Under the pieces are notes generated by a model that saw only the letters and a list, made by a program, of their open reading frames with translations, made no database searches and was not told where the DNA came from. This document shows positions 7,926-38,165 of a stretch of DNA of 64,000 nt, piece after piece (within the stretch, counting starts at the first letter, position 1; the number at the start of each line of letters is the position of its first letter). The DNA lies in the NCBI GenBank assembly GCA_050246315.1, contig JBFWWG010000002.1, positions 396,811 through 460,810 on the forward strand, written 5' to 3'. The DNA comes from Nitrospiraceae bacterium (GTDB lineage: Bacteria > Nitrospirota > Nitrospiria > Nitrospirales > Nitrospiraceae). The position numbers were made by a program, and so were the translations under genes.

Positions 7926-8043
7926 GCACGACCGATGCACACCATGTTCATGCTTCTGTAGCAGGTGGACCTTGATGTGGCCCGCTGCGCGGGCATTGTC
8001 TCAGGCTCGGCGTATCTGGTAGACGAACAGCCAGGAGGACACC

Positions 8044-17389: not shown

Positions 17390-17775
17390 TTTCCCTCAAT
17401 CCCCGTGCTTCTGCCGCAAAGAAAACATACCGTCGACTTTGGATACAGCCAACCATTTGTTCTTGGACCGGCCCGTAGCATAAGTCAAAATTCCAAAGAA
17501 TTCGACAGCTCTATTGGTAGGGAGATGTATGGATTGCGGTCAATAAGGGCGGGAGACTGTTAAGGGTTGTTCTTAGGGAGGTCGAGGAATTCCCCGGTCG
17601 TATATCGGTCGCATAGCCGAGCGATTTTCGGGTTATTCTATCTCACTTGATCTCACTCCTGCTCTGCACACAACTCGTTGAGTTTCTGCAAGACAACGTG
17701 TGAAGCCCGCGCAAACATTGAAGGCGCTGAATTGGTCACAATCAAATCCCGGCTTTGGCACCGTATCATAGTTCC

Positions 17776-18510: not shown

Positions 18511-18513
18511 GGC

Positions 18514-18765
18514 TCACCCCCCGCCGAAAAATCGTGTGACCGAAGTCACATAGGCGAGCAGGATCGTCAGCGCATAGAAGAAGATCCCGATTGCCAGCCG
18601 CTGTTTGTAGGCTCCGTACCAGAACGCGAACCCGAGGCACGTCACTGCCAGCACCCGAGCGACCACACCCTGGAACAAGGTCACGAAGATCCAGTCCCAC
18701 CAGGCCAGATATTCTTCCAGCGTCATGTAGGAGAGCGGGTTCAGATAATCGATGAGATTCTCCAT
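18514..18765 (-). CDS. Small membrane protein
   Basis: 83 aa with 2-3 hydrophobic helices; operon spacing. Confidence 0.7.
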   Translation of the reverse strand: MENLIDYLNPLSYMTLEEYLAWWDWIFVTLFQGVVARVLAVTCLGFAFWYGAYKQRLAIGIFFYALTILLAYVTSVTRFFGGG

Positions 18766-18780
18766 GACCTGCGGGTGCTC

Positions 18781-20118
18781 CTAGGAGATCGCTCGCAGCT
18801 CGACAACGATTTGGAGGATCCCGGACTTGCGGGCCTCAAGGTCCGATGCCGGCACATTGAAGACTTCGAGCTTGATCGGGACGAAATAATTTCGAGGTGG
18901 GAGCGTATTTCTCCGTCTCGGATTGTTCATGATGATCTGATAGCTCCGCCCATAGAATCCCTCCCCGATCGGTACTGCAAGGACGTCAGCACGTCGTACA
19001 TCATCGACGATGCGACGCAATGCCTTCTCGCGATCGGAAAGCCGGATCAAAGACAGATCGACCACCTTGCGCTCCGTGGACAAGCGCCGAGCCGCGTCGA
19101 GGAGTAGGTCGGGATGCACGTAGACTGTATCCTTTATGGAGATGGCGGACCACCTCCCGCCCCGCTGGAGTTGGTTGATCTTCGGTTCCATCAGTTCAAG
19201 CAGGCAGGGAACCGAGAACCAGCTTTCCCACGGCTGCACTTTCAATTCCTTGGAGAAGGCTGCCACTTCCAATTCTCGCGCCCGTCCATCGGCTTGCCGC
19301 AGCAGGGCGTCGAACTGGCCTTTGCTCGCACGATGATGACCTCGGATCGCATCCAACGACTCCTTCAGCCACGGAAGGTCAGAGCCTGCAAAGAGTTCCT
19401 GCACCTTCATCGCGCTCACGGCGGGATGGTCACCCATCGTGTAGATCCCACTTGCGCGGAACACCGGAATCTTTCCCAGATCATGGCCCAGAGCGGCCAC
19501 CAGCATCTTCGGGACCAGCGGTTCGTAGTCGCGATACGTTTCCTTGAGACTCTTCATCGCCATTAGTGTGACGCGATGGGTGTGCTCCTTCAGCGTCACT
19601 TTCGCCAATGTGTCGCGGATACTGTACAGATCGCTGTGTTCCTCATCCTTCTCCGGCGCAGTGACAACGACTGACGGACAGTGCCCGTACTGCTCCAGCA
19701 CCTTCACCATTTCCATGAGGGGCACCCACACACGCTGTGCCTCGAGAATGGCCTGATGCGGCGCCAGCAGATCCCGCACCAAGGCGGAGGACTGAAGGGC
19801 TTCCGGTCGGAGAGGCTGGCTCACAGGTCGGGATTGATCCGGAGGCATGTCGGAAGAGGCGTCCTCCTTCGATTCAGGAGTATCACCATCCAGAGCCACG
19901 TCCGATTCGGTCTCCATCGCGTGATCGTTCGCCTGCCCCTCCTCCGGCTGGACCTCAATCCTCATGAAATCGACGTTCAAAGGTAGCCACAGGTCCTTGG
20001 CGAGCTCGGACAAATCGATTTCAATCGGGTCAGGCCCATGAGGATACGGCGGCGCCAAGCTGACTGATTGCTTCCATCCCAATCGGGTTACCACCGCACT
20101 CAGCCATCGCTTGACCAT
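18781..20118 (-). CDS. HD-domain protein, putative MOBH/TraI_2-like relaxase
   Basis: EHTHRV, ALGHDLGK, DHP..SA, IRGHH, RQADG HD motifs; located in the tra operon; canonical HHH motif not seen. Confidence 0.6.
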   Translation of the reverse strand: MVKRWLSAVVTRLGWKQSVSLAPPYPHGPDPIEIDLSELAKDLWLPLNVDFMRIEVQPEEGQANDHAMETESDVALDGDTPESKEDASSDMPPDQSRPVSQPLRPEALQSSALVRDLLAPHQAILEAQRVWVPLMEMVKVLEQYGHCPSVVVTAPEKDEEHSDLYSIRDTLAKVTLKEHTHRVTLMAMKSLKETYRDYEPLVPKMLVAALGHDLGKIPVFRASGIYTMGDHPAVSAMKVQELFAGSDLPWLKESLDAIRGHHRASKGQFDALLRQADGRARELEVAAFSKELKVQPWESWFSVPCLLELMEPKINQLQRGGRWSAISIKDTVYVHPDLLLDAARRLSTERKVVDLSLIRLSDREKALRRIVDDVRRADVLAVPIGEGFYGRSYQIIMNNPRRRNTLPPRNYFVPIKLEVFNVPASDLEARKSGILQIVVELRAIS

Positions 20119-21307: not shown

Positions 21308-23263
21308 CTAACACTTTCCGCTGTAGGCGCAGATCTTCGCATTCATGTCGGAGGCCACAGCCGCAGGATCGATATTCGCGTTGACGTGCACGTACCACTC
21401 CGTGAAATCCATGGCGGCAAAATTCAACGAGGAGAATTGCGCGATGCTGAACCCGCTGCAGTCAGGCGCGTCGGCAGAACCCCAGGGCCAACCGATTTGC
21501 GCGCGGCCTTGTTCCTGGACAATGCGGGCCAATTCCGACTTGAAATCACAGTACACCTGCTCCTTCCTGGTACAGACCTTCGCGAATCCAAAACTGACCC
21601 ACTCCACACAGCGAGTCCCCACGTAGTGCGCCTTGTACAGCTGCCGGTCCTTCGCCAACTGGACTTCCTCGTCCGAGCAGCTGCCCAGTAATCTCGTCGG
21701 ATCGCTGGCATCGCAGCAGTCGATGATCGGCCGAATGATCGGGTTGTAATCACAGGCCATCCGTGTTCCGTTGAACACGCGAAGGTTGGTGGTATCCCAA
21801 TCGTTCTCGACATCTTTGACCAACTGCAGATAGGTGGCAGAGAGGGCGAGATACTGGTTGGGAGGGGTTGACGTATCGACACAGAATGGAACGTAGCTTC
21901 CGGGAACACCGCATTGGTTGCACTGGGCCATCGTCACCGTCCGACTGCAGGTAGGAGTGGACGCGCAGGAGAAGGTATTCTCATAGACCTGGCACCGACC
22001 GAAGCTGTCAGGAACACAAGTGGAGCTGATCTGGCTGCAACCCTTCTCCAGGAGAGGTTGACAAGTGTCCGGAGAAGACGAGCTGGTCATCCACTGTTCC
22101 TGCTCCCTCCAGCAGGCAATATCTGTGATCGTAAAGACCGTTCCGTCTGAACTCGTGATCTGACGAGCGGCGGAGTCTAGACAACGGGAAGACTCGAACA
22201 CCCAGGACGACCTCAAGGGGGCACAACTATCAGTGATCACGTCCTTTCGAACCTGCACGTCATAGGCGAGGGTCATCTGTATGCCACCGGATTGCGCTCC
22301 GCCCGCAGGGCAGAGGGCGAGCAGAGCAGACTGTCCGGGACCAAGGGTCGCACTTCCAAACCCCGTGCAGCCACCGTTCTGCCAGCCGCTGATGGAGGCA
22401 GAGAACGATTCTGTGAGGATCGTCTCACCGGAGCCTAAGGACGCGGCGTAATTGAACGTGCCCAGCACATGCCAGCCTCCTCCATGCCCACAGTTCTTAT
22501 GCCAGATTCCTTCCGGGCCCATGTCCAAGTATTCAACCGAGTAGCTGCCGGGACCAATTTGGCGGACTTGGGCATAGAGGTAGTGATCACTGCACCAGCC
22601 GGCAGGACCAAAACTGCCGGTCTGGGTCTTGTGCGTGATCGAGACAAAGGTATTCACCTCACACACGGCCGTTTCCACACCGGGACTTTGGCAGCTCTGA
22701 ACTGATTCAGGTCCAGCCGTGTATTCCACACAGGTCGGGACGTCCACGCAGGTCCCGCTGAGTCCGGGTGACGGGGTGATGCTGGAGGCCACCGCCTCGG
22801 CGGTCTTGACCGGAGCGGTCGTGCTCACATCCCATCCGTCCTTTGATGATTTCTGGTCCTGCAGCGTCGAATAAGTCGGATCCGTCACCGTCGCGTTGGT
22901 TGCATCCGCATTGAGCGGGGCGATATCCCCGCTGTTGCTGAAATACCCCTCCTGCGGCGCTCCCGAACAGCCGGAGCTCGTACAGCCGGTAGCGCCGCCG
23001 TACTGAGGTGTCTTCGTCATATTCGGCGCCAAGTTTCCAGTGCTGACCGAACCAGCGCCTTGCATTTCGCCCAACACACATTGAGCCCGTGTATAGGCAT
23101 CGGCGATGCTGTCGCATGGCCCCACCCCCGTGGCCGGAGTCACCAAGGCCATCACGCAGCTTGCGGACAGCGCCGCCCCAACCATGACCGATCTTGACCG
23201 GCTGAGCGGTACGGCAGGCAATGATGATCTGCCCGAGACGAATTGGAATGGCAGGCGCTGCAT
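21308..23263 (-). CDS. traN: Mating-pair stabilisation protein TraN
   Basis: Cys-rich; C-terminal CC...C..EE..LA...HYVGT.C...YC.FKS.LARIVQEQGR.Q...CSGF...DFTEW. Confidence 0.92.
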   Translation of the reverse strand: MQRLPFQFVSGRSSLPAVPLSRSRSVMVGAALSASCVMALVTPATGVGPCDSIADAYTRAQCVLGEMQGAGSVSTGNLAPNMTKTPQYGGATGCTSSGCSGAPQEGYFSNSGDIAPLNADATNATVTDPTYSTLQDQKSSKDGWDVSTTAPVKTAEAVASSITPSPGLSGTCVDVPTCVEYTAGPESVQSCQSPGVETAVCEVNTFVSITHKTQTGSFGPAGWCSDHYLYAQVRQIGPGSYSVEYLDMGPEGIWHKNCGHGGGWHVLGTFNYAASLGSGETILTESFSASISGWQNGGCTGFGSATLGPGQSALLALCPAGGAQSGGIQMTLAYDVQVRKDVITDSCAPLRSSWVFESSRCLDSAARQITSSDGTVFTITDIACWREQEQWMTSSSSPDTCQPLLEKGCSQISSTCVPDSFGRCQVYENTFSCASTPTCSRTVTMAQCNQCGVPGSYVPFCVDTSTPPNQYLALSATYLQLVKDVENDWDTTNLRVFNGTRMACDYNPIIRPIIDCCDASDPTRLLGSCSDEEVQLAKDRQLYKAHYVGTRCVEWVSFGFAKVCTRKEQVYCDFKSELARIVQEQGRAQIGWPWGSADAPDCSGFSIAQFSSLNFAAMDFTEWYVHVNANIDPAAVASDMNAKICAYSGKC

Positions 23264-25601: not shown

Positions 25602-26249
25602 TTACGGTTCTGTCCTCAGCTCGATCGCCATCGACGTCAGCTTGCTCGCGAGCGCGACGTTCATGCCGCCCTTGCCCAGGAAGTATCCTTTGCACTCGGC
25701 CGGCACCAGGACCCGCGCCATCTGCTCCTCCCTGAACACATCGATCCTTCGGATGCGATCCACCGGTGCCGGTGCCAGCGCATTGCGAATGAATCGGCCC
25801 AGGTCCGTCGAGTACCGGACAAACGACACCATCAGTCGGGTATAGCTGGCGTAGCTCTGACGGTAAGGCACACACAACTTCACCGGATCCACTCCCTCTT
25901 CGCTCTCCACGGCGATTTTGACAAACGGCGAGCCGAGGCCCGTGGCGACCCGACGTATCCGGACTTCACCAGCCTCCAACACAGGACGGAGGATGGATTC
26001 CGAAATACGGCGGATGTAATGGGGACAGCGCTGGGACAGGACCGGATACATCTCACCCAGCCGGTACACCGCTGCTGAGATCGTGTCCTTGACCCGATAG
26101 GGCCGGTCAGCATACTGCTTCGGAAGCACGGCGAAAGGCTGCGTGCCGTTGATCAGGATGAGGTAACTGTCCCGATCCGGTAAGGCCTTCACAACCCGAC
26201 CCAGCACGAAGTCCCCGATCTTCTCCATCGAGCCAGTTTCCTTCCCCAA
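25602..26249 (-). CDS. NusA paralogue lacking the N-terminal domain (S1-KH1-KH2)
   Basis: S1 (GDFVLGRV...AVLP...YRVKD...VLSQ..P), KH1 (VKIAV.S...VDPV..CV), FIRNALAPA, KH2 LGKGGMNVALASKLT. Confidence 0.85.
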   Translation of the reverse strand: MGKETGSMEKIGDFVLGRVVKALPDRDSYLILINGTQPFAVLPKQYADRPYRVKDTISAAVYRLGEMYPVLSQRCPHYIRRISESILRPVLEAGEVRIRRVATGLGSPFVKIAVESEEGVDPVKLCVPYRQSYASYTRLMVSFVRYSTDLGRFIRNALAPAPVDRIRRIDVFREEQMARVLVPAECKGYFLGKGGMNVALASKLTSMAIELRTEP

Positions 26250-26403
26250 CCCCTGTATTACTCCCGCCGCTCGCGGGGACTTTCCTCACCACGATGCACC
26301 CCTGCCTGCCCACGGACCCTTCGGCGCTGGCTTGCGTTGCACATCCATTCCTGTATTAGTTCTGGAGGAAGCAACGCATCGTCGGGTTGCGATCGAGGCA
26401 CCA

Positions 26404-27699
26404 ATGGGTCCTCAAAATCAGGTTTCCACTGAGCAACTACGGGTCCTCCAGACATTATTCCCCTGGTTGGCGTTCATTCCGCTGGTGCTGACGCACTGCG
26501 GGCCGATTGAAACACCCGTCAGCCTCGACCACGTTCATCAGGTGCCGGTCATTCACCACACTGAGCCTCTAGGCCCTCCGGAACTCCGGATCTCCGCGCA
26601 TACGGATGGCCTTGGGTGGTCCGTCCAGCCGGTTCAACGGATCCGACGGTATGTCGATGTGACGCAGCAGGAAACGTGGAAAACCAGGGTCTATCCGGCT
26701 GCGAAAACCTGGAGAATTCCAAAATTCGTGGCAGGATGGGTCACATGTCCGACGTGGGGAATTTTAGGGATGACGGGACTCGCCTTCGCTGAACCCGGCG
26801 CCCCGATGTGGCGCCGATCGGCCCTCTATGAACCTTGCTCGCTGGCCAGCGGGGGTGAGGCCTACTCCTCCGAATCAACGATGATGCGAACCGATGTCAC
26901 GCTGGATCGCCGGATTGAAGAGGAGGATCAGCACGTGACGACTGGTTCTCTTGCGCTCGTGTGGCAACTCCCTGGCAAGGATCCTCTCGGCATCGACATT
27001 CCTCTGAGCCCGGAGCAGACCACAATCATGTTCCGGGCTCGCTGGATCGCAGACCTGCTTATTCGGCAGGGCATCGAGATCACCGATCAGCTTTCCGGCC
27101 ACGCAGAGGTTCAGCTACAGCAACCAGGAGCCCCTCTCATCTCTCATCCGATCCCGTTGACCACCGTGATGCTCCGCGCCGCAATCGAGCAGGAAGCGGC
27201 ACGCGCTCCCGCAGGCCGGTGGCCATCGGCGATCAGAATCCGAACCGTCGTGGAAACTGATGGAAAGGGTGCTGCTCCTGAAACGCGCGCGCTCGCAACG
27301 CATCTGCTACGACACCTTGCTCGGTCGGGTCTGGCTGTCGTCGTGCGCGACGAGCTTCTCGCCGAATCCGAAGACCTCCTGACGGCTCAACAACAAGGCC
27401 GCTATAGGGACTCGGCGCGGAACGGAATCGGGCAATGGTCTGGCGCAACCCTTCTCGTTCACGTGTCTGCCCGGAATCTCCACGAGCAGGGCTACCTCGC
27501 TACGACGAGCATCGCTTCCATCGAGACCGGCGAGGTTCTCGCTCATCTCCTCGTGGAAGCCCCGCCCGGACAGTGGGCCGAGTTTCTCGACACCATGAGC
27601 GCCCGGATCCTCGACATCGTGATGCCCGCAGGTCGCCCACAGGGGGATATCGCGCGCCACAATCATGCGAGGCGTGAGGGATGGCTCATCACACAATGA
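26404..27699 (+). CDS. Putative lipoprotein with C-terminal CsgG/HfaB-like domain
   Basis: Hydrophobic stretch ending LTHC; QQQGRYRD...IGQWSGATLLV; paralogous to the next gene. Confidence 0.6.
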   Translation: MGPQNQVSTEQLRVLQTLFPWLAFIPLVLTHCGPIETPVSLDHVHQVPVIHHTEPLGPPELRISAHTDGLGWSVQPVQRIRRYVDVTQQETWKTRVYPAAKTWRIPKFVAGWVTCPTWGILGMTGLAFAEPGAPMWRRSALYEPCSLASGGEAYSSESTMMRTDVTLDRRIEEEDQHVTTGSLALVWQLPGKDPLGIDIPLSPEQTTIMFRARWIADLLIRQGIEITDQLSGHAEVQLQQPGAPLISHPIPLTTVMLRAAIEQEAARAPAGRWPSAIRIRTVVETDGKGAAPETRALATHLLRHLARSGLAVVVRDELLAESEDLLTAQQQGRYRDSARNGIGQWSGATLLVHVSARNLHEQGYLATTSIASIETGEVLAHLLVEAPPGQWAEFLDTMSARILDIVMPAGRPQGDIARHNHARREGWLITQ

Positions 27700-28838
27700 C
27701 CACCAGCCGCCTCCTTCCCCTCCTTATCAGCCTCCTCCTCGCGGGATGTGCAGAACTTGTCCCTGAGGATGCAGGCCCTCCCCATACCCGCACGTTCGAG
27801 CTCGACCGCTATCCCACCGGCCACGTTCGGATCAGCACAGAAGTGCACCCAGATCATCTGGGCTGGACGCTCGCCATCGAACAAGCGACAGCCGTCACCA
27901 TCGCCATCCAGGAAGAAACGCCACAGCAGTACCGCCGCTACGTTTTTTCGCCCCTCTCGATCGTTCCCGGACTTTTCCAATGTCCCTACGGCTTGATCAA
28001 GTACGCGCTCACGCTCGGCTACGCTTCGGACGAGCCGATGCGCTACGGCTGCTGGAGGCTCATCATGAAAGAACCCCTTCAGGGATCCATTTCTCTGCCC
28101 AGCAACATTCACCGCTCCCTCGAGCTTACGGAGCGATGGGAACCGGTTAAGGGAGGATCGATAGACGTGAAATGGGAAGGGCAGACAGATCTACTCGCGA
28201 CCTATGCGATCTCCGTCGAGGTACCAGTCCTTCGACTGGCACATCTCGTGCGGAACGATCAGGGGCGGCCTATATCAGAGGAAGCGCAAGCAGGCAGATT
28301 GGAAGTGAACTATAGGCAGGGACCACATACCGCCACAACGATGCTCGACGTCTCACGGAAACAGTTCACCAAAGCTTCCAAGTCCGCGACCCAATCCATT
28401 GCGGCCGAGCGCTGGCCTCATCCGCTCGTCGTTCAGGTCGGTACGCTGCAAGGCCTGCCTCCTGTCCTCGAAGAAGTCATCAAGGCAGCTCTTGCCAGAA
28501 ACTTCTTGCAGGCACAGATCTGTTTCGTCGCTGATGATCCCACGAAGGCGAGAATCACTGAAGAACAACGTTTCCAACTTAGCGGCCGGGTCCATGACAG
28601 CAAACAAGTCGCGCTCGGCCAATGGATCCCGGCCACCGTTCTGATCACTGGCAGTCTCGACACCACCCAGACCGCACCCGAAGTCGTCCTGCAAGTATCG
28701 ACGGTCCCTTCGGCAGAAGTCCTTGGAACGATCCGCCTGCCAGTCACTCCCACGACCGCATTCCCTATGGCATCAATACTCTCCGAGGACCTGCGGCTCC
28801 TCACCGCCCATGCCCCGAAAACGCCTTGCAGAAACTGA
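27696..28838 (+). CDS. Lipoprotein with C-terminal CsgG/HfaB-like domain
   Basis: Lipobox LLAGC; EEQRFQLSGRVHD...LGQWIPATVLITGS; ATGA overlap with the previous gene. Confidence 0.7.
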   Translation: MTTSRLLPLLISLLLAGCAELVPEDAGPPHTRTFELDRYPTGHVRISTEVHPDHLGWTLAIEQATAVTIAIQEETPQQYRRYVFSPLSIVPGLFQCPYGLIKYALTLGYASDEPMRYGCWRLIMKEPLQGSISLPSNIHRSLELTERWEPVKGGSIDVKWEGQTDLLATYAISVEVPVLRLAHLVRNDQGRPISEEAQAGRLEVNYRQGPHTATTMLDVSRKQFTKASKSATQSIAAERWPHPLVVQVGTLQGLPPVLEEVIKAALARNFLQAQICFVADDPTKARITEEQRFQLSGRVHDSKQVALGQWIPATVLITGSLDTTQTAPEVVLQVSTVPSAEVLGTIRLPVTPTTAFPMASILSEDLRLLTAHAPKTPCRN

Positions 28839-28876
28839 GAATCCTTCCCATGACTTAGCCATGGAAAATCGTGTGT

Positions 28877-28952
28877 ATCTAACGTTGCCGTAAGTGGCTG
28901 GGGTGCAAGCAGGCGAGCCCCCCGGTCCGCTGTAGCAGGAAGTCCGTGGGCA
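28877..28952 (-). repeat. attC: Degenerate terminal attC site
   Basis: R' GTTAGAT on - (ATCTAAC 28877-28883) but R'' is degenerate and the palindrome is imperfect. Confidence 0.45.
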
Positions 28953-29297
28953 TCACGACTGCCACATAGGCAGACCGAGCCTACAAAAGAGTGACTTCAC
29001 GTGCGCCTTGATCGCACACTTGGCAGTGTGCACCAGAAAGAAGCCACGCCCGATGAAGGCGTTTACGGTCGGGCATGGTCTGCCCAACTGCCTAAGGACG
29101 TCAAATAGGCCGCGGCGCAAGTTATCAGACGGATCCGTGTAGAAGTGACGACCGTTCTCTGGTGGCGCGACACCAACGAACAGAACACGAACGGGATCTG
29201 GTGACTCGATGCCCAGTGGGTACAAGGGGCCAGGCGGACATTCGACGTCGACTCCAGGGAGGACTGCGCCGCAGCGGGCACAGCTTATCACGTCCAT
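28953..29297 (-). pseudogene. Truncated uracil-DNA-glycosylase-superfamily cassette gene
   Basis: RVLFVGVAPP...HFY and FFLVHTAKC match the N-terminal half of UDG family 4/5-like folds; only 114 aa. Confidence 0.55.
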
Positions 29298-29353
29298 CTG
29301 AATCTGCGCTCAGCAATCCCTCACTGCTCCCACCTGACCCGGCCCTGTTGTGT

Positions 29354-29411
29354 GCCGAACGCGCAGGATTACCCGCGGCCGTAGGCCGTCGGGTGAATCC
29401 TGTAGTTAGCA
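29354..29411 (-). repeat. attC: attC site (58 bp)
   Basis: GCCGAAC...CAGGATTACCCG.GGCCGTAGGCCGTCGGGTGAATCCTG...GTTAGCA. Confidence 0.9.
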
Positions 29412-29437
29412 AGCCGTCCGGTGTTCGTGCGCATCTG

Positions 29438-30016
29438 TCACGGCAGGTCCTGAACTCGGACCGAGAAATCCATGCTGATGCCGTCGAGGCAATCGCCGAT
29501 TAACGCGACCGTTGCGCCGAGTGCCTTGAGACCAATAACCAGGTGGTCAAAGATGGGGCGCCCGTTGCGATCACGGCCGTAGCGAAAGCTCTCCGAGTTT
29601 GGATCGAGCTGGCAGAGATCGTTGACGCACTCTGCGATTGTGACGAATTGCGCGGGCAACGAAGCTCCGTAGAGCGAGCCGCACAGCTGATGGACCTCCG
29701 TCCAGAGTCGGTCAAGATCGTGTCCGTGTCGCCATTCGGCTCGTTGACCCGATAGCACCAGCCCGTAGACGATGATGTCCTTGAAGCGCAGTTCAAGATA
29801 GTGCCGAAAGAGGAAGAGTATCGGAAGTACGACACTGTCTCGTTCGCCTGCGGTTCCCTCCGGGTCCGCTAGCAATCGCCGGAGCAGTATTTCTGCCGCC
29901 TGCCGATACCCGGCTGCGTGAAAGTCGCCGACCCCTGTCCAGTGGTCGAGCACCGCATTGAACCTGATATCATGATCCGCGGTCAGAACTCGAAGTGGAT
30001 TCGAACTCGCCATCAC
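29438..30016 (-). CDS. Cassette protein, HEPN-like
   Basis: LFRHYLELRFK, HGHDLDRLW, FRYG resemble HEPN helical motifs. Confidence 0.65.
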   Translation of the reverse strand: MMASSNPLRVLTADHDIRFNAVLDHWTGVGDFHAAGYRQAAEILLRRLLADPEGTAGERDSVVLPILFLFRHYLELRFKDIIVYGLVLSGQRAEWRHGHDLDRLWTEVHQLCGSLYGASLPAQFVTIAECVNDLCQLDPNSESFRYGRDRNGRPIFDHLVIGLKALGATVALIGDCLDGISMDFSVRVQDLP

Positions 30017-30060
30017 CTACCACCCAGAAGCGCGGTCATCCTGGCACAGATGTTCTGTCT

Positions 30061-30126
30061 TGCTAACGAACGAGGTAACCGGCTCGGCCGCTTGCTGCCG
30101 AGTCCGAGTTGAGCGATTGGTTAGGC
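30061..30126 (-). repeat. attC: attC site (66 bp)
   Basis: TGCTAAC...CTCGGC/GCCGAG...GTTAGGC. Confidence 0.88.
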
Positions 30127-30142
30127 AACGCGGGCACCTGTG

Positions 30143-30607
30143 TTAAGACATGAACAACGAATCGACTGCCAATAGTAATTGGTGCGCATTGTCGGCTTCA
30201 TCTTGTGCTGTCTTGATCTCACCGGTATCGAAGTGAGCCTTTTCATGCATCAACTCCTTTCGGCATTTCCGAAATTTCTCAGCAGCATCAAGAACCCTCT
30301 GATCTGAGCAACCAAGTAAACGCATTTTGTCTGCATAAGATTTGAAATCGAATTCCTTGAATTTCTCTATCCCGTGATCGCGAACAATCAAAAGATGAAG
30401 CAGTGCTTCAAGCCACATCCCTGTGAATACGATGGCGATCATGGCCTTCTTGAAGCTCCTTCGCTCTGGATCAAAGGTGATAATCCAGCCCGGGCTTCCA
30501 TCATCCTTCGGTCTTCGTCCGGAGTTGATGTGTTCATGCATTTCCTTGTGTGCATCAAGTGCAATGGCTTTGTAAGTGGCAACATTGGTGATGACGAATT
30601 TGTTCAT
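30143..30607 (-). CDS. Cassette protein with HEPN RxxxxH motif
   Basis: AIVFTGMWLEALL and RKELMH; AT-richer than the backbone. Confidence 0.7.
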   Translation of the reverse strand: MNKFVITNVATYKAIALDAHKEMHEHINSGRRPKDDGSPGWIITFDPERRSFKKAMIAIVFTGMWLEALLHLLIVRDHGIEKFKEFDFKSYADKMRLLGCSDQRVLDAAEKFRKCRKELMHEKAHFDTGEIKTAQDEADNAHQLLLAVDSLFMS

Positions 30608-30613
30608 GGCGTT

Positions 30614-30688
30614 GTCTAACGTCGGCGTCGAGCGGCGCCGTGAAGCGCGCGGCGCTGAACCGCGTCCGTCTCGAACGCGGGGTTAGGC
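30614..30688 (-). repeat. attC: attC site (75 bp)
   Basis: GTCTAAC...GCGTCGAG/CTCGAACGC...GTTAGGC. Confidence 0.9.
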
Positions 30689-30692
30689 GGCA

Positions 30693-31292
30693 TCATTTGT
30701 CGACGCGGAGGTTCTTCTCAAGCAGGTTGAGCAACTCCTCCAGTGGCGCACCATATTCTTTTTCCACTAGCATCTGAAGATTAGCGACGGCCTGCTCTTT
30801 CCACGCCGCAACTGCTGTTGGGTCATTCGGTCGTGATGGCGAAGCAATCTTCGGCGATTTGAAGTGGTATATGGCTTGGGTAAGCCGATCCAGTTCTGGC
30901 GAGGGCGAAAAAACTGCCCTCGCGAGGCCGATGGATTCATAGAGCGACTGGCGGGTGCGCGCAACTTCCAGGGCAAGATCCTCGCTCTTGTGCATCCACC
31001 GCGTAGCTTCGGTGAAATCGATGGACTCTTTTGGCCGGCCTGCGATTTTCCACAAGTACTCGTGGTAGTCGGAGTGGATGTACGCCTCAAAGCGAGAAAC
31101 GAGTAGTTGCATAAGCAAGACTCTCTTGCCCATGATCTCAGCGTATGCGCGCTGCCGGTCCTGCTGCTGCGCCAGTTTGACCTGATTACGCAACGCAAAA
31201 TGCGACGTAGTGAATGAGCCCACAATCGCCCCAATGATTGCGAAAACTCCCGCAATCAGAGCGACGTAGAGAGGTAAGAACTTAGTATCCAC
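30693..31292 (-). CDS. Cassette protein, N-terminal TM helix plus helical domain
   Basis: Hydrophobic LYVALIAGVFAIIGAIVG; bounded by attC sites. Confidence 0.8.
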   Translation of the reverse strand: MDTKFLPLYVALIAGVFAIIGAIVGSFTTSHFALRNQVKLAQQQDRQRAYAEIMGKRVLLMQLLVSRFEAYIHSDYHEYLWKIAGRPKESIDFTEATRWMHKSEDLALEVARTRQSLYESIGLARAVFSPSPELDRLTQAIYHFKSPKIASPSRPNDPTAVAAWKEQAVANLQMLVEKEYGAPLEELLNLLEKNLRVDK

Positions 31293-31314
31293 TCATCCGC
31301 CCGAGGTTAATGCC

Positions 31315-31410
31315 GCCTAACGCCGCGCTTCACCGGCGCCGAGCGAGCGTGAGCGAGCGAGGGAACAGCCGCCGGAAGGCTGCTGCGTCCGGTGGAAGCG
31401 CCGGTTAGGC
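31315..31410 (-). repeat. attC: attC site (96 bp)
   Basis: GCCTAAC..GCGCTTCACCGG...CCGGTGGAAGCGC..GTTAGGC. Confidence 0.92.
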
Positions 31411-31414
31411 GCAC

Positions 31415-31837
31415 TCATGTTGACGGCCGCTTGGCAACCGAGGAGAGCATCCTTTTAAGTTCGCGGTGGATGACCTTGGCACATTCATCGTACTCCGCGA
31501 GATCGTCACCGTACGGATCATTGATTCGCCACTTCTTCAATCGCTCGCTCGGCAGAGCCGGGAACAGCTCGTGCAGCGTTCTTGCGACCTGGTTGTCCAT
31601 AGTGACGATCAAGTCGAACTCTGCGATGTTCACGCCTCTGACGTCGCGTGGCTTGTGTGCGCGGGCATCGATCCCGTGCTGTCTCAGGGTGTATATAGCG
31701 TTGCTTGAGTCCTCAACTGAACCCGGCTGGACTCCGGCTGATTCTGCATCAATCTGCCCTCGAAACCTCCCGCGCGAGATGTACTCGGCAAGGACACTTC
31801 GGCACGTGTTCCCGGTGCACACAAAGAGAACGCGCAT
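31415..31837 (-). CDS. Low-molecular-weight phosphatase/ArsC-family cassette protein
   Basis: VLFVCTGNTCRS P-loop, ESAG, FDLIVTMD, W.I.DPYG. Confidence 0.9.
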   Translation of the reverse strand: MRVLFVCTGNTCRSVLAEYISRGRFRGQIDAESAGVQPGSVEDSSNAIYTLRQHGIDARAHKPRDVRGVNIAEFDLIVTMDNQVARTLHELFPALPSERLKKWRINDPYGDDLAEYDECAKVIHRELKRMLSSVAKRPST

Positions 31838-31845
31838 TTCAGTGC

Positions 31846-31909
31846 GCCTAATGTTCCGGTTCAGCGGCGGGCCACGCCGCGCACCGCCCGCTGCAACCGG
31901 TTGTTAGGC
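31846..31909 (-). repeat. attC: attC site (64 bp), R' reads ATTAGGC instead of GTTAGGC
   Basis: GCCTAAT...CCGGTTCAGCGG/CCGCTGCAACCGG...GTTAGGC; upstream ORF stop TAA lies within R''. Confidence 0.85.
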
Positions 31910-32710
31910 GCTTCCCTCAAGAAGCTGGTGCGAGATTCCCTTCGCGACCTCCCAAAAGAGTCGTGCATCGTGGTCGCTAATGTTAACGCCATGGGTCAGT
32001 TCCTTGTGCGGATGAATGTAGTTTCGATAGTCTCGGACGACTTCGCCGAGGTCCTTTGCGGACGATGAGATCCAACGCAGCTCATGCGCGACATCGATGT
32101 AGTTACGCAGCGTCCACTCCTGGAGCATCAGTGGCTTTCCCGTCTTGCTATCGCGGGGCGCCGACGAAGCCCCAAATACGGCAGACTTGTCGCCAAGGCG
32201 ATGGACCCGGGCAAGGAGAAGAGCTTCCAAGAGGCCGCCCATCATCACTGTCGCGGCAAGTGGCGCGCCGGCCGTGACGCATCTCGTGCACTCCTCCCAA
32301 CGACGGGCGAGGACCTTTCGCATTGCCGGATCAGCCACCAAGGAATCGAAGCTTGGTGGACTGTCCGCAGTCGGCTTGGTAGCGGGTGAGGGTGCAACTA
32401 CGGCTGACCGCAGCTCAGAGAGCAGAGTGCGAAGTTCCTTCAGCCAAGCATCGTATGTGCTCCTGGCCGTGGCCCGATCTGCTGCCCCGAGAATCGTCTT
32501 GTACAGTTTGTCAGTGCCCTCCAGAAGGTCATCACCGACGACCTGCCGAACCTCAGACCTATGATTGTTGAACCACGTAAGGCAGGTCGCCCGAATCACG
32601 TCCTTGTCATCCGCTGATTGAACTTGTCTGGACTGTCCCCTCTTCAGAAGACGACGAAGGCGATCGATCTCGCGCATCGCATCGCCGATCGCATCATTTG
32701 CGCTGGGCAT
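31904..32710 (-). CDS. Cassette protein with C-terminal HEPN-like (DUF4145-like) domain
   Basis: AATVMMGGLLEALL, WTL..YI..A.E, RDYRNYIHP; start moved to ATG 32710. Confidence 0.75.
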   Translation of the reverse strand: MPSANDAIGDAMREIDRLRRLLKRGQSRQVQSADDKDVIRATCLTWFNNHRSEVRQVVGDDLLEGTDKLYKTILGAADRATARSTYDAWLKELRTLLSELRSAVVAPSPATKPTADSPPSFDSLVADPAMRKVLARRWEECTRCVTAGAPLAATVMMGGLLEALLLARVHRLGDKSAVFGASSAPRDSKTGKPLMLQEWTLRNYIDVAHELRWISSSAKDLGEVVRDYRNYIHPHKELTHGVNISDHDARLFWEVAKGISHQLLEGSA

Positions 32711-32717
32711 CGGGCGC

Positions 32718-33305
32718 TCATTTCCTGCGCGTACGCTTCGCAGCGCGCGTGTCGCGACTCCCGCCCTTCCTCCGCGGGCGCGCTGTACGTCTGGGCACAT
32801 CTGCGGCCGTGGCGTTTCCCGGCAAGCTCACAGCGACGAGGTTCTCGCCAACCGTGCTGATGACGTACTCCCCGCGATTGGTGCCTTTATCCAGCAACCC
32901 ATTGGTATGTGCGTTTATCAGGGTCTGCGCGGGCCTCGGCAACCGGTTCCGCCCTGTAAGACGACACGCCTCCTGGAGATCCTCGGCGGTGATGAACTCC
33001 TTCCTTGTGGCGGGGGATGCGACGAAGCGATAGTAATGAGCCACCGTTGCAGCGAACTGATTGTCGCTGGTCGGGTTCTTCTCGGCTACGAAGGTTCTGA
33101 TGTCCTTCGCCCCACCCGTGCCCTCTCCTCCGGTGGGGGAGCCCGCTTGCGGCCCTCGTATCCCCGCTGGAGCCGGACCTTGCACCGACAGCCCAAGCTT
33201 CTCGCAAGCCCACCGGATGATTCGTTCCTGCTCTCCCGCATCGAAAGGAGATAGAACTTCAACGAGTTTCCGCACGGCTTCAAGGTCATCCGGCTTTTCC
33301 GTCAC
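32718..33305 (-). CDS. Cassette protein, probable winged-helix domain; first gene of a two-gene cassette
   Basis: GGAGGAGG RBS and GTG start; IT..DL.EA...P.QTL.NA...GLL....GEY.I...GEN pattern. Confidence 0.7.
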   Translation of the reverse strand: MTEKPDDLEAVRKLVEVLSPFDAGEQERIIRWACEKLGLSVQGPAPAGIRGPQAGSPTGGEGTGGAKDIRTFVAEKNPTSDNQFAATVAHYYRFVASPATRKEFITAEDLQEACRLTGRNRLPRPAQTLINAHTNGLLDKGTNRGEYVISTVGENLVAVSLPGNATAADVPRRTARPRRKGGSRDTRAAKRTRRK

Positions 33306-33333
33306 GGCGTCCTCCTCCTGACGTGATGAATGC

Positions 33334-33395
33334 GCCTAACTAATAAGTCTGCTGCGGCCTACCCGTGCAGCATAGCGCGGCAGCCTAAGCACTGC
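33334..33395 (-). other. attI: attI-like primary recombination site
   Basis: ...GACTTATTA-GTTAGGC at the array head with no partner R'' box, so not an attC. Confidence 0.6.
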
Positions 33396-33406
33396 ACTTG
33401 AAGGCA

Positions 33407-33436
33407 AGTCTACTTGTAAATCCAATACTTATTCAA
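33407..33436 (-). promoter_or_regulatory. Pc-like cassette promoter TTGAAT-N18-TAGACT
   Basis: Hexamers about 65 nt upstream of the attI-like crossover, pointing into the array. Confidence 0.45.
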
Positions 33437-33621
33437 TATTTCGTCGTGCTTCGCGTACTGGGATATACTGCGACTTCCGCAGTCTATCCGGCTATCGGCC
33501 CGCAGTATATCCACCTCCGACCAGTCGGAGCCTGACACGGTCAGCGGGGCTCCAGTACCATGGGTGTGAAACGCGTTCAATACTCACAACAACTGGCAAC
33601 AGTCATCACATCGAGGGAACG

Positions 33622-33852
33622 CTAATCATCATCGCAGAAAACGTTTTCTCCTCTGCCATAGGTGTTACCATGCACATCGATGATATCATCGAGCATCGGG
33701 TAACCAGTTCCAGGATTAATCTCATTCCCGCTGGACTCAGGATCGGGATCCAACAGATCCAACTCATCTACTCGTTGAGATGGCCCCCATCCAAGGCCGT
33801 GCCACCAGTTCTCCAGCTGCTGCCACAAGACCGCTAATCGGGTCCCCATCAT
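33622..33852 (-). CDS. Small protein downstream of traG, candidate entry-exclusion factor
   Basis: Position after traG; INPGTGYPM...DVHGNTYG motif; function inferred from context. Confidence 0.45.
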   Translation of the reverse strand: MMGTRLAVLWQQLENWWHGLGWGPSQRVDELDLLDPDPESSGNEINPGTGYPMLDDIIDVHGNTYGRGENVFCDDD

Positions 33853-33992
33853 AATGAGTGCACCTAGACCTTCTCAGGGCAAGAGTTTACTTGACTTGAC
33901 GAGGAGTCGCTATCTCCCGCTGCCGTCGGAGTGACAACCAATAGTGTTCCGATACCGCGACACACATCAAGGCCAATCTTCTGGCGAGGGGG

Positions 33993-36900
33993 TCACGGTT
34001 GCGGATTTCTACCCGAGCCTTTAGGCCCACTAATGTCGATCCCGCTTTTCTTGAGTGCATGAGTAAGATCCTGCTCGAACCTTTGGAGATCCTCCATCCT
34101 CTGCGGCGAAGCACCGGGCCCGGGCGTCCTGGCCAACCGATCACTGGGATTTCCTCCAGGAAGTGGTCCTCCTTTGAGACCCGCGGCACCGGTTCCGCCT
34201 CCGAAGGCTCCGCCCAGTCGCCGACCCGTCATGGCCAAATTACCCGCACCCGTTACAATGTCAACGGCGGTTTTGCCAGCTCCGATCGCTCTTAATGTCT
34301 GCTTCGCCCCACTGTCTTCGTTGGTGAGTTCTTTCGGATCCCAGTGCCCAAACACAGGATACTCGGCACCGATGTTCACCCGTCGGTGGAGTTCCTGCCT
34401 GTACACATCCCATTCGATCACCTGTATGCCGCTATCCCCCTTCTCATAGAGCAGCTTTCCATCAGGCCCAATAACCTGGGTTGAGGCCAAGCCGCTCGTT
34501 TCGACCTCGTTCGTGGAAAGCGAACGGAAATTCGTCACCCCCGGACCACCATATGTGGGCTGAGCGGTCTCGGCCACGCCCCATTGTGCTTTTCCATCGA
34601 CCACCCTGTAGTTCCACGTCTTCCCATACTGGCCGCTCTGGAATTCGGCGTAAACCACGCTGCCTTGCTCATCCATGAAGCCACGCATCTGCACGGGATG
34701 GTGCTGCCCTTGATGGACTGGATCGGGGATCCACTTGGTCCCGCTGAACATGCGCGTGTTATGCAGTTCGGAGAGTGTCCCACCTTGCGTCCGATGGAAT
34801 TGCTCGAACCGCTCAACGAAACGTCCGCCTGTTTCATGGGTGTAGTCATGGAACAGGTCAGTCTTCCTCCCTCCCGTTCCAATGTCTGACAGGATTTCTC
34901 TCGTCCCATCCCCTGATTGCGGCCCGAGCGTCAAGGTCCGAGCAGTCCCATCCGCACCGATCTGTTCTGTGGAGAGCGTCGTGTAGGTCGCGACGGAGGC
35001 ATGCGAATCGGGATCTTGATGCATGTCGATAAAGCCGGTCTCATATTCTTTCGTCAGCGGATTCTGCTTCATCACGAACGCCTGGCTCCGCAGATCGTTG
35101 ACCACGCTTCCCTCAAGGAGACTCCCCTCCTTATCGAATAGCCCGAAGAAATGCCCCTTGTGGGTCTGCCCGGTCGTCCCGTCCTTCCACTCGATCGGCT
35201 TATCCTTGAGGTATTGCTCCTTTTCCTGCCATCCCATGACGCTTGACACATAATCCCAGAGTTCCGTCTTTCTGCCCCCCTCAGCATGGCTGAAGATTGC
35301 TTCTCCCGTCTGGTTGCTCTTCACGCCCCGGACGGCAACCTCCTGCCCGCCATACTGGTCAAGCGTCAGGAATTCCACCCCTTCCCTGCTCTGCCCGGCA
35401 GCGATGTGAAAATCTCCCTGGTGGTCGTAATTGCCGGTCAAGGATTTCGTCACCCCTCCGGGAATCGAGTAGGACAGACTCACCGAGGTGGGCTCGCGCC
35501 GCTCTTGCCCGTCCGGAAGCTGGATCACGTTCCCTTCCTCGTGTGTCGCCACTTGCCTGGTCACCGCCTCATTTTCAGGAAGAAGGCCGATGACCCTCTG
35601 GAGCCTCACGCCATCCCCCGTGTAGCTCTTGCCGCCGTTGTCGCCGGTCTTATAGACATACTCCATCCCCGCATCGACGAAGCGATCCTTGTTGCTCCGC
35701 TCCGTGCCACCCGCCGTCGCCTGGAGAACCCTCGTTCCCTCTGCATCGACATGGATCTCCCCTGAATAGGCAGCCTTGCGGTCGCCCTTCGTGCTTTCGA
35801 TTTCATAGGTGAGGGGATTGTGCTGGAACTTCCCATCCGGTCGCAGGTTGACGCGGCCGAATTCCCTTGCCCTGCCTTGAATCGTCTCCATCTCCCCGTC
35901 CAGCTTCCGAACGCCAATGCTCTCCGCCGCATCACGAGTATAAAAGGTGTCGCCTTCCACGCTGTGGTAGTAGCGGAGATTGGCATCACCTCTCAGCACC
36001 TCCCCGACCACGCCCTCTTTATAGCCGCCCTGCGAGACGGCGAAGACCGAGATCCCGTTGATCTTCTGTCCGGTGAGTCGTCCCTTGTATTCGCGGGTCG
36101 GGCCGTCGCCGGAGGTCACCAGCTGCCCTTCGCCCCAGAAGTCCTCGTGGCCGAGGCGCAGACCTGACCGTGAGAGGGTGCCGGTGACCGGTTCCTGCCG
36201 GCCATCGGGATGGACCGCCCAGGCCATGACCGGACCCGTTTCGCTGACCTGTTGCGGCCCCCATTGCGTGCTCGTCTCGACCCGGCTCACGCCATCCTTG
36301 ATCGAGGCATCCACGCGGCGGACGGTTTTTCCCGTTTCCTGGTTATACTCTTCCCGGACCGAGTGGAAGACGCCATCCTGCTCGTAGCTGAAACTCTTGT
36401 CGATCGTGGCCCCGCGGACTTCGAACTGTTTCTGCACCATCCGGCCGGCCGCATGATCGAACTCTTCGCGACGGAAGGCCCCACTGTCATACCAACCTCC
36501 GGTGGGCGATTTCTCGTTCGCTCGCCGCGAGAACCCTCCCGTCGGCCCTTGGTACGTGACCATGCCGTTCGCCCCGATGCGGGTCGTCCCGCCATCAGCG
36601 TGATGCAGGGTGGACACCCCAGTTTGCGCATCGACGCGAAGGCCGCCGATGCCGACCGGTACCGTATAGCTCTCTTGCGATCCCGGACGAGCTGCGGTCC
36701 CCATCCGAACCGGCTCCATCACATAGGACGACGCTTCCGACATGACCTGCCCCTGACCACGAGCGAACTGCCCTGCTTCCTGGCTGGCGGTAGACAGGGG
36801 AGCGGAGAGACTCCCGGTGAGCGAAGATGCGAGATTCCCTCCCGCCCACACCAGGCCCCAGGACACAGCCGGCACCGCCAGCGTCAGATCTGCCGCCATG

Positions 36901-38165
36901 GAATTGATGCCGACGATGTACTCTCTGATCGGGTCGAACGAATTGAACGTGATGGCGTCGGCGAACCCCGAATTGATGACGAGGTCCTTGACCTTGGCGT
37001 TGGCTTCGAAATACATGACGAAGTTCACCACTGCGTAAAGCGGTCCCCATAGAGCAAGCCACGCGAAGCTCCGGCCGTAGAGTCCGAGGACCCGAGTCAT
37101 GGAGCCCGACAGGGCCATCACGGCGATGAACGGGGTGACCAGATATACCAGGCCTTCCGCGACCGTTCGGAGCACGGGAAGGAACTTCGCGGCGATGTAG
37201 GACTTGGTATAGGCCTGATACTTCAAATCCTGTGTCGTGGCCTCCTGAGCCAGCTTCACTGCCGACGGCACATCGTTCATCGTCTTGGCCCGCTGGGCCC
37301 ATGCCTCCTTCCAGGCCTTCCCGATCACGATATTCCGCAGGACCTGGTCCGAGGTCTGTCCCGGCACGCCGAGCAGGGTCGTCCGGAGCTGATCGATAAG
37401 CGGCAATTCGTCTCCGGGAACAGTGGGGTCCGCACCGAGCGCCGAGCGCAGCTTCTGGGTGGCTTCCAGGTATTCGGGCGCCGGTGTCGTAAAGCCCGGC
37501 GTGATGATGTTCGCATAGAAGTCCGTGCAGAGCTGCGCGGCGGGCTGGATATTGCCATTCTGATACCACGGTGAGCTCAAGGCGGGATTGGTCGCCGCGA
37601 TCGCGCCGAGGGCATCGGTCGACTTCTCCACGGCGGTGCGGTTCAGTTGGTTGTAGTCGATCTCCTTCAACGTGCAGTTCATGAGGTACTGGACGAGGTT
37701 CTTCCACAGATCGCTGTCGGGGAGCGTGAAGTCGAGCATCTTCTGCGTCTCGAACAACGGCCGGTTGATCACCGATCCTGTGGAACGATAGCCGGTCGGC
37801 AACAAGAGCGCCGTCTCGGTGAGGGCAGTGAGGTGATACCCCACCTGACCGGAGACGTAGGCCGGAAACGCGATCAGCACCGGTACGCCGGTCACGATCG
37901 TGTCGGGCACCGCAGGATTGACCTGATCTTCGATCGCGACGTCGGCCGTCACGAATACCGAGGCGTACAAGAGCCCGACCGCGCCGATCAGCATGGGACC
38001 GAGAAAGCGACGGTTGAAGGTCACATGGAGCAGGGCGAAGACCGCCAGCCCGAGCAGACCGAACCTGAAGAGGCTCTCATAGGCCCCCGTGGTCATCATC
38101 AGCTTGAGGCCCGTGATCACCGCCGCGATGACATCCCCGTTCCCGAACGTAAAGATCTGCCACAT
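33993..38165 (-). CDS. traG: TraG mating-pair stabilisation protein with long C-terminal extension
   Basis: WQIFTFGNG start, TraG_N TM pattern, WLALWGPLYAVVN; follows traH. Confidence 0.9.
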   Translation of the reverse strand: MWQIFTFGNGDVIAAVITGLKLMMTTGAYESLFRFGLLGLAVFALLHVTFNRRFLGPMLIGAVGLLYASVFVTADVAIEDQVNPAVPDTIVTGVPVLIAFPAYVSGQVGYHLTALTETALLLPTGYRSTGSVINRPLFETQKMLDFTLPDSDLWKNLVQYLMNCTLKEIDYNQLNRTAVEKSTDALGAIAATNPALSSPWYQNGNIQPAAQLCTDFYANIITPGFTTPAPEYLEATQKLRSALGADPTVPGDELPLIDQLRTTLLGVPGQTSDQVLRNIVIGKAWKEAWAQRAKTMNDVPSAVKLAQEATTQDLKYQAYTKSYIAAKFLPVLRTVAEGLVYLVTPFIAVMALSGSMTRVLGLYGRSFAWLALWGPLYAVVNFVMYFEANAKVKDLVINSGFADAITFNSFDPIREYIVGINSMAADLTLAVPAVSWGLVWAGGNLASSLTGSLSAPLSTASQEAGQFARGQGQVMSEASSYVMEPVRMGTAARPGSQESYTVPVGIGGLRVDAQTGVSTLHHADGGTTRIGANGMVTYQGPTGGFSRRANEKSPTGGWYDSGAFRREEFDHAAGRMVQKQFEVRGATIDKSFSYEQDGVFHSVREEYNQETGKTVRRVDASIKDGVSRVETSTQWGPQQVSETGPVMAWAVHPDGRQEPVTGTLSRSGLRLGHEDFWGEGQLVTSGDGPTREYKGRLTGQKINGISVFAVSQGGYKEGVVGEVLRGDANLRYYHSVEGDTFYTRDAAESIGVRKLDGEMETIQGRAREFGRVNLRPDGKFQHNPLTYEIESTKGDRKAAYSGEIHVDAEGTRVLQATAGGTERSNKDRFVDAGMEYVYKTGDNGGKSYTGDGVRLQRVIGLLPENEAVTRQVATHEEGNVIQLPDGQERREPTSVSLSYSIPGGVTKSLTGNYDHQGDFHIAAGQSREGVEFLTLDQYGGQEVAVRGVKSNQTGEAIFSHAEGGRKTELWDYVSSVMGWQEKEQYLKDKPIEWKDGTTGQTHKGHFFGLFDKEGSLLEGSVVNDLRSQAFVMKQNPLTKEYETGFIDMHQDPDSHASVATYTTLSTEQIGADGTARTLTLGPQSGDGTREILSDIGTGGRKTDLFHDYTHETGGRFVERFEQFHRTQGGTLSELHNTRMFSGTKWIPDPVHQGQHHPVQMRGFMDEQGSVVYAEFQSGQYGKTWNYRVVDGKAQWGVAETAQPTYGGPGVTNFRSLSTNEVETSGLASTQVIGPDGKLLYEKGDSGIQVIEWDVYRQELHRRVNIGAEYPVFGHWDPKELTNEDSGAKQTLRAIGAGKTAVDIVTGAGNLAMTGRRLGGAFGGGTGAAGLKGGPLPGGNPSDRLARTPGPGASPQRMEDLQRFEQDLTHALKKSGIDISGPKGSGRNPQP

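Follow-up and report, generated by a model that had tools for sequence, protein, structure and literature searches.

We analysed a 64,000-nucleotide stretch of DNA from a Nitrospiraceae bacterium (the window; G000:C2:396811-460810, part of a 625-kb contig), in which the transfer genes of an F-type conjugative element enclose an array of integron cassettes. Read on the minus strand, window positions 28877-33340 are a genuine cassette array, composed of five cassettes that each bear an attC recombination site and of a sixth, terminal unit. Probably the locus is a degraded integron that occupies a hotspot for cargo on an integrative conjugative element of the F type, and its cassettes would be exchanged in trans by an integron integrase (IntI) encoded elsewhere. 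Cassette exchange in trans, considered on its own, is plausible from the comparison of related elements. In the following, G000 designates the source genome and C1, C2 and so on its contigs; the other G numbers are related genomes and L numbers are extracted loci.

The attC sites were detected with two covariance models. The first model, R1, was trained on the five window sites and four others, making it circular for the window sites; it scored these at 51.3-66.6 bits on the minus strand and matched nothing elsewhere in the 64 kb at E<1. The second, R2, was built without the window array, from 24 attC sites taken from 13 related public loci and from the host C1 integron, and recovered all five window sites at 36.9-57.0 bits (E 1e-6 to 1.4e-11), in a leave-out test that is only partly independent because R1 had selected the training sites. 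Outside the array, the best R2 match in the 64 kb reached 12.2 bits (E 0.94). Following the array from its head, all on the minus strand, the sites are attC1 (31846..31909; 66.6 bits with R1, 57.0 bits with R2; R' is ATTAGGC), attC2 (31315..31410; 54.0 and 48.1 bits; 96 nt with a long variable loop), attC3 (30614..30688; 56.1 and 40.3 bits), attC4 (30061..30126; 53.8 and 42.1 bits) and attC5 (29354..29411; 51.3 and 36.9 bits, E 1e-6 with R2; a hairpin). Across the 24 independent sites, 84.4% of the cells were paired, against 18-44% when the partners were slid, and 9 of 11 inner-helix pairs had changed on both sides, in an alignment that was fitted to the model, which favours pairing.

All five sites fold as imperfect hairpins in which the end boxes RYYYAAC and GTTRRRY are paired. 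In the folds of attC1 and attC3, inspected by eye, it is the 3' arm of the plus strand that has the bulged bases; plus is thus the bottom strand, which recombines, and minus is the top strand, which is coding. This assignment agrees with the orientation of the genes and with the minus-strand head junction G|TT (the bar marks the crossover). The cassettes are bounded at these five sites by inverse R''/R' cores and an imperfect hairpin, with the one-arm bulges noted in attC1 and attC3, and the sixth unit lacks such a boundary. The strict motif pair RYYYAAC...GTTRRRY, with a spacing of 40-150 nt, occurs four times in the window, three of them inside the array; crude motif-plus-folding scans found three of the five attC sites together with two false matches and were replaced by the covariance models. 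On the minus strand, cassette 3 has the ends GTTAGGCGGCAT (31321->31310) and, opposite, ATGCCGCCTAAC (30693->30682), and cassette 5 has GTTAGCA (30067->30061) opposite TGCTAAC (29411->29405), exactly as quoted in an earlier, sequence-only reading of this DNA. That reading had counted five clear attC sites and one degenerate one. Both models bear out the five; for the sixth (28884-28985) neither gave a match at E<=10 with filters off, and no fold with paired ends was obtained. Only its junction G|TTAGAT (28877..28883, minus strand, read 28883->28877) is clean, and conserved backbone begins there. This terminal junction corresponds to the right half of what was once the attI core and has become R' for the last unit.

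The head of the array lies in a module at 33340..33536 (minus strand), with the crossover ...CAGCAGACTTATTAG|TTAGGC at 33340|33339 and, from a repeat analysis, putative IntI-binding repeats at 33461-33512. It has no R'' partner. The 172 bp beside the junction (33341-33512) form a repeated module: G000 has copies at C1:379077 and C6:76227 and shorter pieces at C7:96443 and C16:18289, and the C1, C6 and C7 copies have in common ...TAAC|TAWTAAGTCTGCTGC, with unrelated DNA on the cassette side. Relatives also possess the module, whole or in part, 18 of 61 related genomes matching a 1,260-base query that contains it (for G001 and G031 this match takes in the end of traG too). Of 151 family genomes, 28 have IntI-like genes of the clade of the integrase on host contig C1 (E<=1e-40), and many of these genes are truncated; the unpublished genome G009 is included in both tallies. 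In the 3' flanks of the relatives' intI genes the same layout is seen ~190-215 bp past the stop codon: ATAGRCTGCGG-type repeats and a TTGACA-N17-xAxAAT promoter directed away from intI, ending in the core ACTYAATAG|TTAGNC, after which the sequences diverge. The position of attI 3' of the intI stop codon identifies the relatives' loci as integrons with intI transcribed towards attI.

A scan of 185,579 species genomes (one per species) for the core pattern yielded 42 loci, of which 31 are titled Nitrospira, Nitrospiraceae, Nitrospirae, Nitrospirota or Nitrospirales (hand count) and 35 have the module by BLAST. With R1, 14 of the 42 gave attC matches, 25 in all, and 24 of these matches lie downstream of the core and on the expected strand. 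Upstream DNA of at least 1.4 kb was available for 28 of the 35 module loci (hand count). Two of these 28 have a full or near-full IntI directly upstream (L078, residues 2-413; L084, residues 110-413), eight have only IntI fragments of varied length (seven C-terminal and a weak internal one of 21 residues in L073, E 7e-4), and the remaining 18 gave no upstream IntI match at E<=1e-3. The conserved junction with unrelated cassette-side DNA, together with the same layout after intact intI genes, argues that the head of the array is most probably a true attI, homologous to the regions 3' of intact intI and with its crossover at G|TTRRRY. The sequence-only reading had called the site attI-like and had pointed to a promoter-like motif upstream, and both proposals gained from the comparison with the relatives' intI loci. 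The putative Pc-like promoter TTGAAT-N18-TAGACT (33398..33427, minus strand), read from the sequence, points into the array and has a position similar to that of the TTGACA-N17-xAxAAT promoter conserved in relatives. A terminator scan of 33250-34050 found none.

What is left of intI stands between the attI module and a 76-amino-acid (aa) backbone open reading frame (ORF). Five codons at 33538..33552 on the minus strand, AGC CCC GCT GAC CGT (33552->33538), encode SPADR and match the IntI C-terminus ...CSPADRLG. In the same place, the elements of G001 and G214 have a longer, decayed intI remnant (...RGGRGINSPADCL and stop in G001), which joins the backbone at the same CACACC motif in both, as judged by eye. 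No complete intI fits between the head and the 76-aa ORF and traG that directly adjoin it, as had been noted before, and on contig C2 no IntI was found near the window with TIGR02249 or tblastn, the only match being a Xer-like gene ~46 kb off. There is no intI adjacent to the attI, which a complete integron would have; with two or more attC sites and no integron integrase within ~4 kb, the locus is an attC-site cluster without integron-integrases (CALIN). The five-codon remnant here and the longer ones in G001 and G214 indicate that the platform is a degraded complete integron, that is, an intI-deleted CALIN that has kept its attI, and not a purpose-built minimal site. The remnants would fit one ancestral loss of intI with further nested deletion in the window lineage. 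The sequence-only reading was right that an integron platform with no integrase of its own lies within the transfer region; its description of a minimal capture site gives way to that of a decayed integron.

Related elements show what else can occupy this place. In seven related copies the backbone is 72-96% identical on both sides, and homology of the left flank always resumes within window 28807-28885. The terminal junction elsewhere is G|TTAGAC in G001, G176 and G214 and G|TTAGCG in G152, followed by homologous flank. The G001 and G176 loci have a module 69% identical to that of the window and one cassette with a good attC, encoding a 243-aa TIGR02391 protein. In G214 the module is followed by a different stretch of cassette DNA, 1.5 kb long, with an attC (21.3 bits), and the intI remnant is common with G001. 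G110 has two loci, one with a module 96% identical up to exactly 33340 and then different cassette DNA with two attC matches (G110:C44), the other with a degenerate module and 5.4 kb (G110:C60). The G152 locus (G152:C7) consists of 745 bp with one phosphatase-like gene, an attC-like end and no module. The G031 locus (G031:C49; L103 689-15073) holds 14.4 kb of unrelated cargo, with TonB, a TonB-dependent receptor and a BNR-repeat protein and no attC, and the G299 locus holds 2.8 kb. A search of five of the hosts (G001, G110, G176, G214, G152) gave no intI match over the family cut-off at these loci. All together, the interval from traG to the backbone gene that follows is a hotspot for cargo, in which the cassette content is not fixed. 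The sequence-only reading had named a deleted intI in relatives among the findings that would speak against it; the deletion is seen, and the cassette content varies.

Moreover, two pairs of elements have a common intI scar and yet different cassettes, namely the window and G110:C44, and G001 and G214. The window and G110:C44 (L106) are 96% identical over 33340-33876, which comprises the module and the 76-aa ORF, against 83% over the traG end at 33877-34600; this mosaic points to a recent recombination tract whose end would fall precisely on the attI crossover. An identity of only 69% between the modules of G000 and G001 was also considered as a sign of module replacement by recombination; this was dropped, the adjoining non-coding backbone being similarly diverged by eye. 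As for G152:C7, the locus (L109, ~430-1010) is a single cassette-like unit whose dual-specificity-phosphatase-like gene has the signature HREGGTGRT, with no cysteine. The unit has its attC-like end at the same G|TTAG junction, without an upstream attI module.

Single cassettes of the array are also found elsewhere. Copies of cassette 4 that are 94-95% identical and correspond exactly to window 30064-30620 occur in G248 and G222, and a 76% identical copy lies within the array of the complete integron of G139. Cassette 5 has an 82% identical copy in G025 (window 29358-30081). Cassettes 4 and 5 thus recur singly, with cassette-exact ends, in other genera. By hand count, sites resembling attC1 are present in 22 other Nitrospiraceae genomes at 80-92% identity, only that of G079 falling below 85%.

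All cassettes are read on the minus strand. Cassette 1 (31852..33339, 1488 bp) contains overlapping ORFs of 195 aa (32718-33305) and 298 aa (31904-32800). Cassette 2 (31321..31851) encodes a 140-aa low-molecular-weight phosphatase or ArsC-like protein (31415-31837), which matches PF01451 LMWPc at E 3.2e-25; its NCBIfam matches to arsenate reductase and low-molecular-weight protein tyrosine phosphatase are all below the cut-offs. Cassettes 3 (30620..31320), 4 (30067..30619) and 5 (29360..30066) contain ORFs of 199 aa (30693-31292), 154 aa (30143-30607) and 192 aa (29438-30016), respectively, and unit 6 (28884..29359), without a recognisable attC, contains one of 114 aa (28953-29297). Pfam, NCBIfam and PADLOC assign no family at cut-off to the ORFs of 195, 298, 199, 154, 192 and 114 aa; the 114-aa ORF has a weak match to uracil-DNA glycosylase (17.7 vs a cut-off of 24.3 bits). 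No PADLOC defence family was found among the cassette proteins, a lone 12.6-bit HerA row being disregarded, and the cassettes gave no sign of a resistance or virulence function.

An integrase elsewhere in the host, as the sequence-only reading had expected, does exist. Two genes that are full length and without stops, IntI_C1 (G000 C1:515188-516429; L009:9189-10421) and IntI_C8 (G000 C8:84849-85865), score 462.7 and 462.4 bits against the TIGR02249 cut-off of 265 and are predicted to encode integron integrases. Residues 99-410 of IntI_C1 give an end-to-end alignment with VchIntIA (2a3v; E 4.8e-85), and IntI_C1 falls in the clade that has an attI matching the module of the window. Integrases of this clade have ~95 extra N-terminal residues beyond the part aligned with VchIntIA, which the C8 integrase does not have; open frames of 414-517 aa in relatives suggest that this N-terminal stretch is conserved. 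The attI of the C1 integron is split, 8-12 nt before the crossover, by an insertion sequence (IS) of ~1.15 kb (C1:513845-514987; L009 ~7846-8988), with the junction GGCTCA-[IS]-CTCACTTAATAG|TTGGGC, so that the clade-matched intact integrase is no longer contiguous with its own attI. The IS encodes a transposase with an integrase-core-like C-terminus.

Four more attI modules without intI were found in G000, at C1:379077-379328, C6:76227-76491, C5:132243-132545 and C18:47130-47383, each with a short remnant of the IntI C-terminus (20, 26, 39 and ~11 residues for C1, C6, C5 and C18, respectively), and a short core fragment lies at C7:96443-96480. The C6 module adjoins the housekeeping genes folK and panC. 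R2 detected three attC sites in the C1 array, two in the C8 array and one each at the C1:379 and C5:132 modules, and none beside the C6, C18 or C7 modules; by these counts the array on the conjugative element is the largest seen in the genome.

The following scenario may thus be proposed. The ancestor would have been an integron of the 'same-direction' type common in the family, with intI, attI ~200 bp later and then the cassettes. The intI gene would have been deleted down to a few 3' codons, while the ~200-bp attI module, with its internal outward promoter and its repeats, stayed whole. Cassettes would be expressed from the module promoter and possibly also by read-through from traG. An IntI from elsewhere in the cell, in this host the clade-matched IntI on C1 or the second IntI on C8, may insert and excise cassettes at attI and attC in trans, and conjugation may then take the loaded array to new hosts. 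A wider view, which we put forward only tentatively, is that the Nitrospiraceae have 'distributed' integrons, with few intact integrases and many intI-less docking platforms made of attI and promoter; in G000 the window platform, four more such modules and the C7 core fragment compare with two intact intI genes. The platform of the element could then be a shuttle that loads cassettes in IntI-positive hosts and delivers them, expressed from the platform's own promoter, to IntI-negative hosts.

Several observations weigh against exchange at a degraded but still usable integron. No RNA run was listed among the sequencing runs that contain the stretch, and contigs from such runs showed no excision joints and no variant arrays. 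The mosaic around the module indicates that homologous exchange occurs, and this could swap arrays without IntI. Related elements were examined in five further hosts: two (G001 and G152) possess an IntI above the family cut-off, and three (G110, G176 and G214, each 99% complete) have none, so the platform can persist without a resident IntI. The attI core of the window is CTTATTAG, against CTCAATAG or CTTAATAG in most intact integrons, and in a consensus promoter scan of 33250-34050 the module promoter remained below threshold with 8/12 matches. The lack of a sixth attC and the partial dependence of R2 on R1 are to be counted here as well. The sequence-only reading had the element rely on a host IntI in trans; action of an IntI in trans is something we infer, and the three hosts that have no intact one argue against reliance on it.

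A rival reading makes the locus an inert relic: a dead integron fragment whose array differences would be due not to IntI acting in trans but to homologous recombination or gene conversion involving other arrays or elements, or would pre-date the loss of intI. The identity step between module and flank (96% vs 83%) speaks for it, the attC1-type repeats common in the family (80-92% identical) are possible crossover points, and the array is unchanged in runs of two other studies, which, like the hosts devoid of intact IntI, suits a dead locus. It is harder to reconcile with the two pairs of elements that have one intI scar each yet different cassettes. Moreover, the limits of the differing DNA coincide exactly with the attI crossover and with G|TTAGAY, which is what site-specific recombination would predict; some cassettes are found singly elsewhere with their ends exact, and the attI module has been kept at full length. 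On balance we regard an inert relic as rather unlikely. Far less credible is that a host IntI put the cassettes at a chance GTT site of the attG type, with no true attI. Insertion by IntI outside att sites is documented (10.1101/2022.09.11.507474; PMC4889954), and the head without R'' partner would suit it, but the 200 bp at the junction are homologous to attI regions after intact intI genes and are accompanied by an intI 3' remnant, neither of which is to be expected at a chance site. The least probable explanation, and a barely tenable one, is that a repeat led a metagenome assembler to fuse an integron array with a conjugative element. The genome does appear metagenomic, and both the module and attC1 are repeated sequences; yet 28700-33700 lies unbroken on an independent contig, the runs of two other studies contain pieces that span 33199-33700, 28700-28988 and attC junctions with 0 differences, and the complete genomes G001 and G214 have the same layout. 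We thus retain the degraded integron with probable cassette exchange in trans.

The locus can be compared with known systems. CALINs have been proposed to be degraded integrons, loss of intI being one origin, with cassettes possibly mobilised by integrases encoded elsewhere, and two have already been reported in Ca. Nitrospira inopinata (PMC4889954, PMC9024848). The window locus resembles them in its at least two attC sites, lack of a nearby intI and about usual number of sites. Unlike a typical CALIN, it keeps the attI and promoter module and a visible intI remnant, and it rides a conjugative element, whose relatives give a natural test of turnover; an intI pseudogene was found nearby in only 15 of 279 CALINs (PMC4889954). 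Transcription of intI towards attI defines the 'inverted integrase' group, for example in Treponema denticola (PMC3607928, PMC4889954), and the parent architecture here would be alike, with intI, attI 3' of it and the cassettes on the same strand. In contrast to that group, the host belongs to the Nitrospiraceae and intI is deleted at the locus, and the one clade-matched intact copy of this host has an IS inside its own attI.

Integrons and CALINs are also carried by SXT/R391-type conjugative elements such as ICEPmiW2 (PMC13358208), where a cassette array is likewise cargo of an F-type conjugative element; those cases are clinical class 1 arrays with resistance genes and intI1 nearby (PMC13358208). 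The window array instead consists of environmental cassettes without assigned function, has no intI and has a family-specific attI. In Xanthomonas integrons, which have a fixed place on the chromosome, intI has usually remained as a pseudogene. The window platform is comparable to the chromosomal integrons with decayed intI of that genus in that integrase function has been lost and the array retained (10.1101/2025.06.18.660453), and differs in that nearly the whole intI is gone and the platform is mobile. We found no paper on such a platform in Nitrospira, in a literature coverage that was incomplete and is not proof of absence. What the present analysis would add is an identified attI and promoter module with its cognate integrase clade, further orphan attI modules in the same genome, and an intI scar common to related conjugative elements with different arrays. 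CALINs are common and may be dead remnants or live partners of distant integrases, a distinction that is hard to draw partly because so few integrons have an identified attI. An attI that can be named, a known cognate integrase clade and common scars with different cassettes make cassette traffic in trans directly testable, as is its conjugative spread in an environmentally important nitrifier lineage.

As to the setting, the window contains, on the minus strand, the F-type transfer genes for TraE, TraK, TrbI/TraB, DsbC, TraV, TraC, an S26 peptidase, TrbC/TraW, TraU, TraF, TraH and TraG, with Pfam matches to TraE, TraK_C, TrbI, TraV, TraC, TrbC_Ftype, TraU, TraF, TraH, TraG_N and TraN. The TraE/K/B/V/C/W/U/N/F/H/G set identifies a predicted F-type (MPF-F) conjugative element, which appears to be integrated in the chromosome, with the array inside its transfer region between traG and traN; no megablast match for window 26000-36000 was found in a plasmid collection. 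The array genes are co-oriented with the tra operon. On the head side lie traG (33993..38165, minus strand; 1390 aa, PF07916 TraG_N at E 1.2e-54), the last gene of the traC...traG block, and, between it and the platform, the 76-aa backbone ORF (33622..33852, minus strand), which has no family match in Pfam or NCBIfam and of which a 76-aa counterpart is present in G001. On the other side, a 385-aa backbone ORF (27681..28838, plus strand) converges on the array and forms the left conserved flank; it is 87-89% identical in the related elements of G001, G176, G214, G152 and G031 and has no match in Pfam, NCBIfam or PADLOC. TraN is encoded at 21308-23263, and an SLT transglycosylase is encoded farther along the element. 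The element also bears defence-like cargo at 13495-20118, comprising a 762-aa SMC/AAA ATPase, a 438-aa SIR2_2-like protein (below cut-off) and a 445-aa HD-domain protein. Its other genes include those for a superfamily-1 helicase (4108-6768), an RNase H-domain protein (8044-8808), an actin-like ParM/ALP protein (11717-12922), a RecD2-like helicase (51724-53898) and a ParB-like protein (60688-61902).

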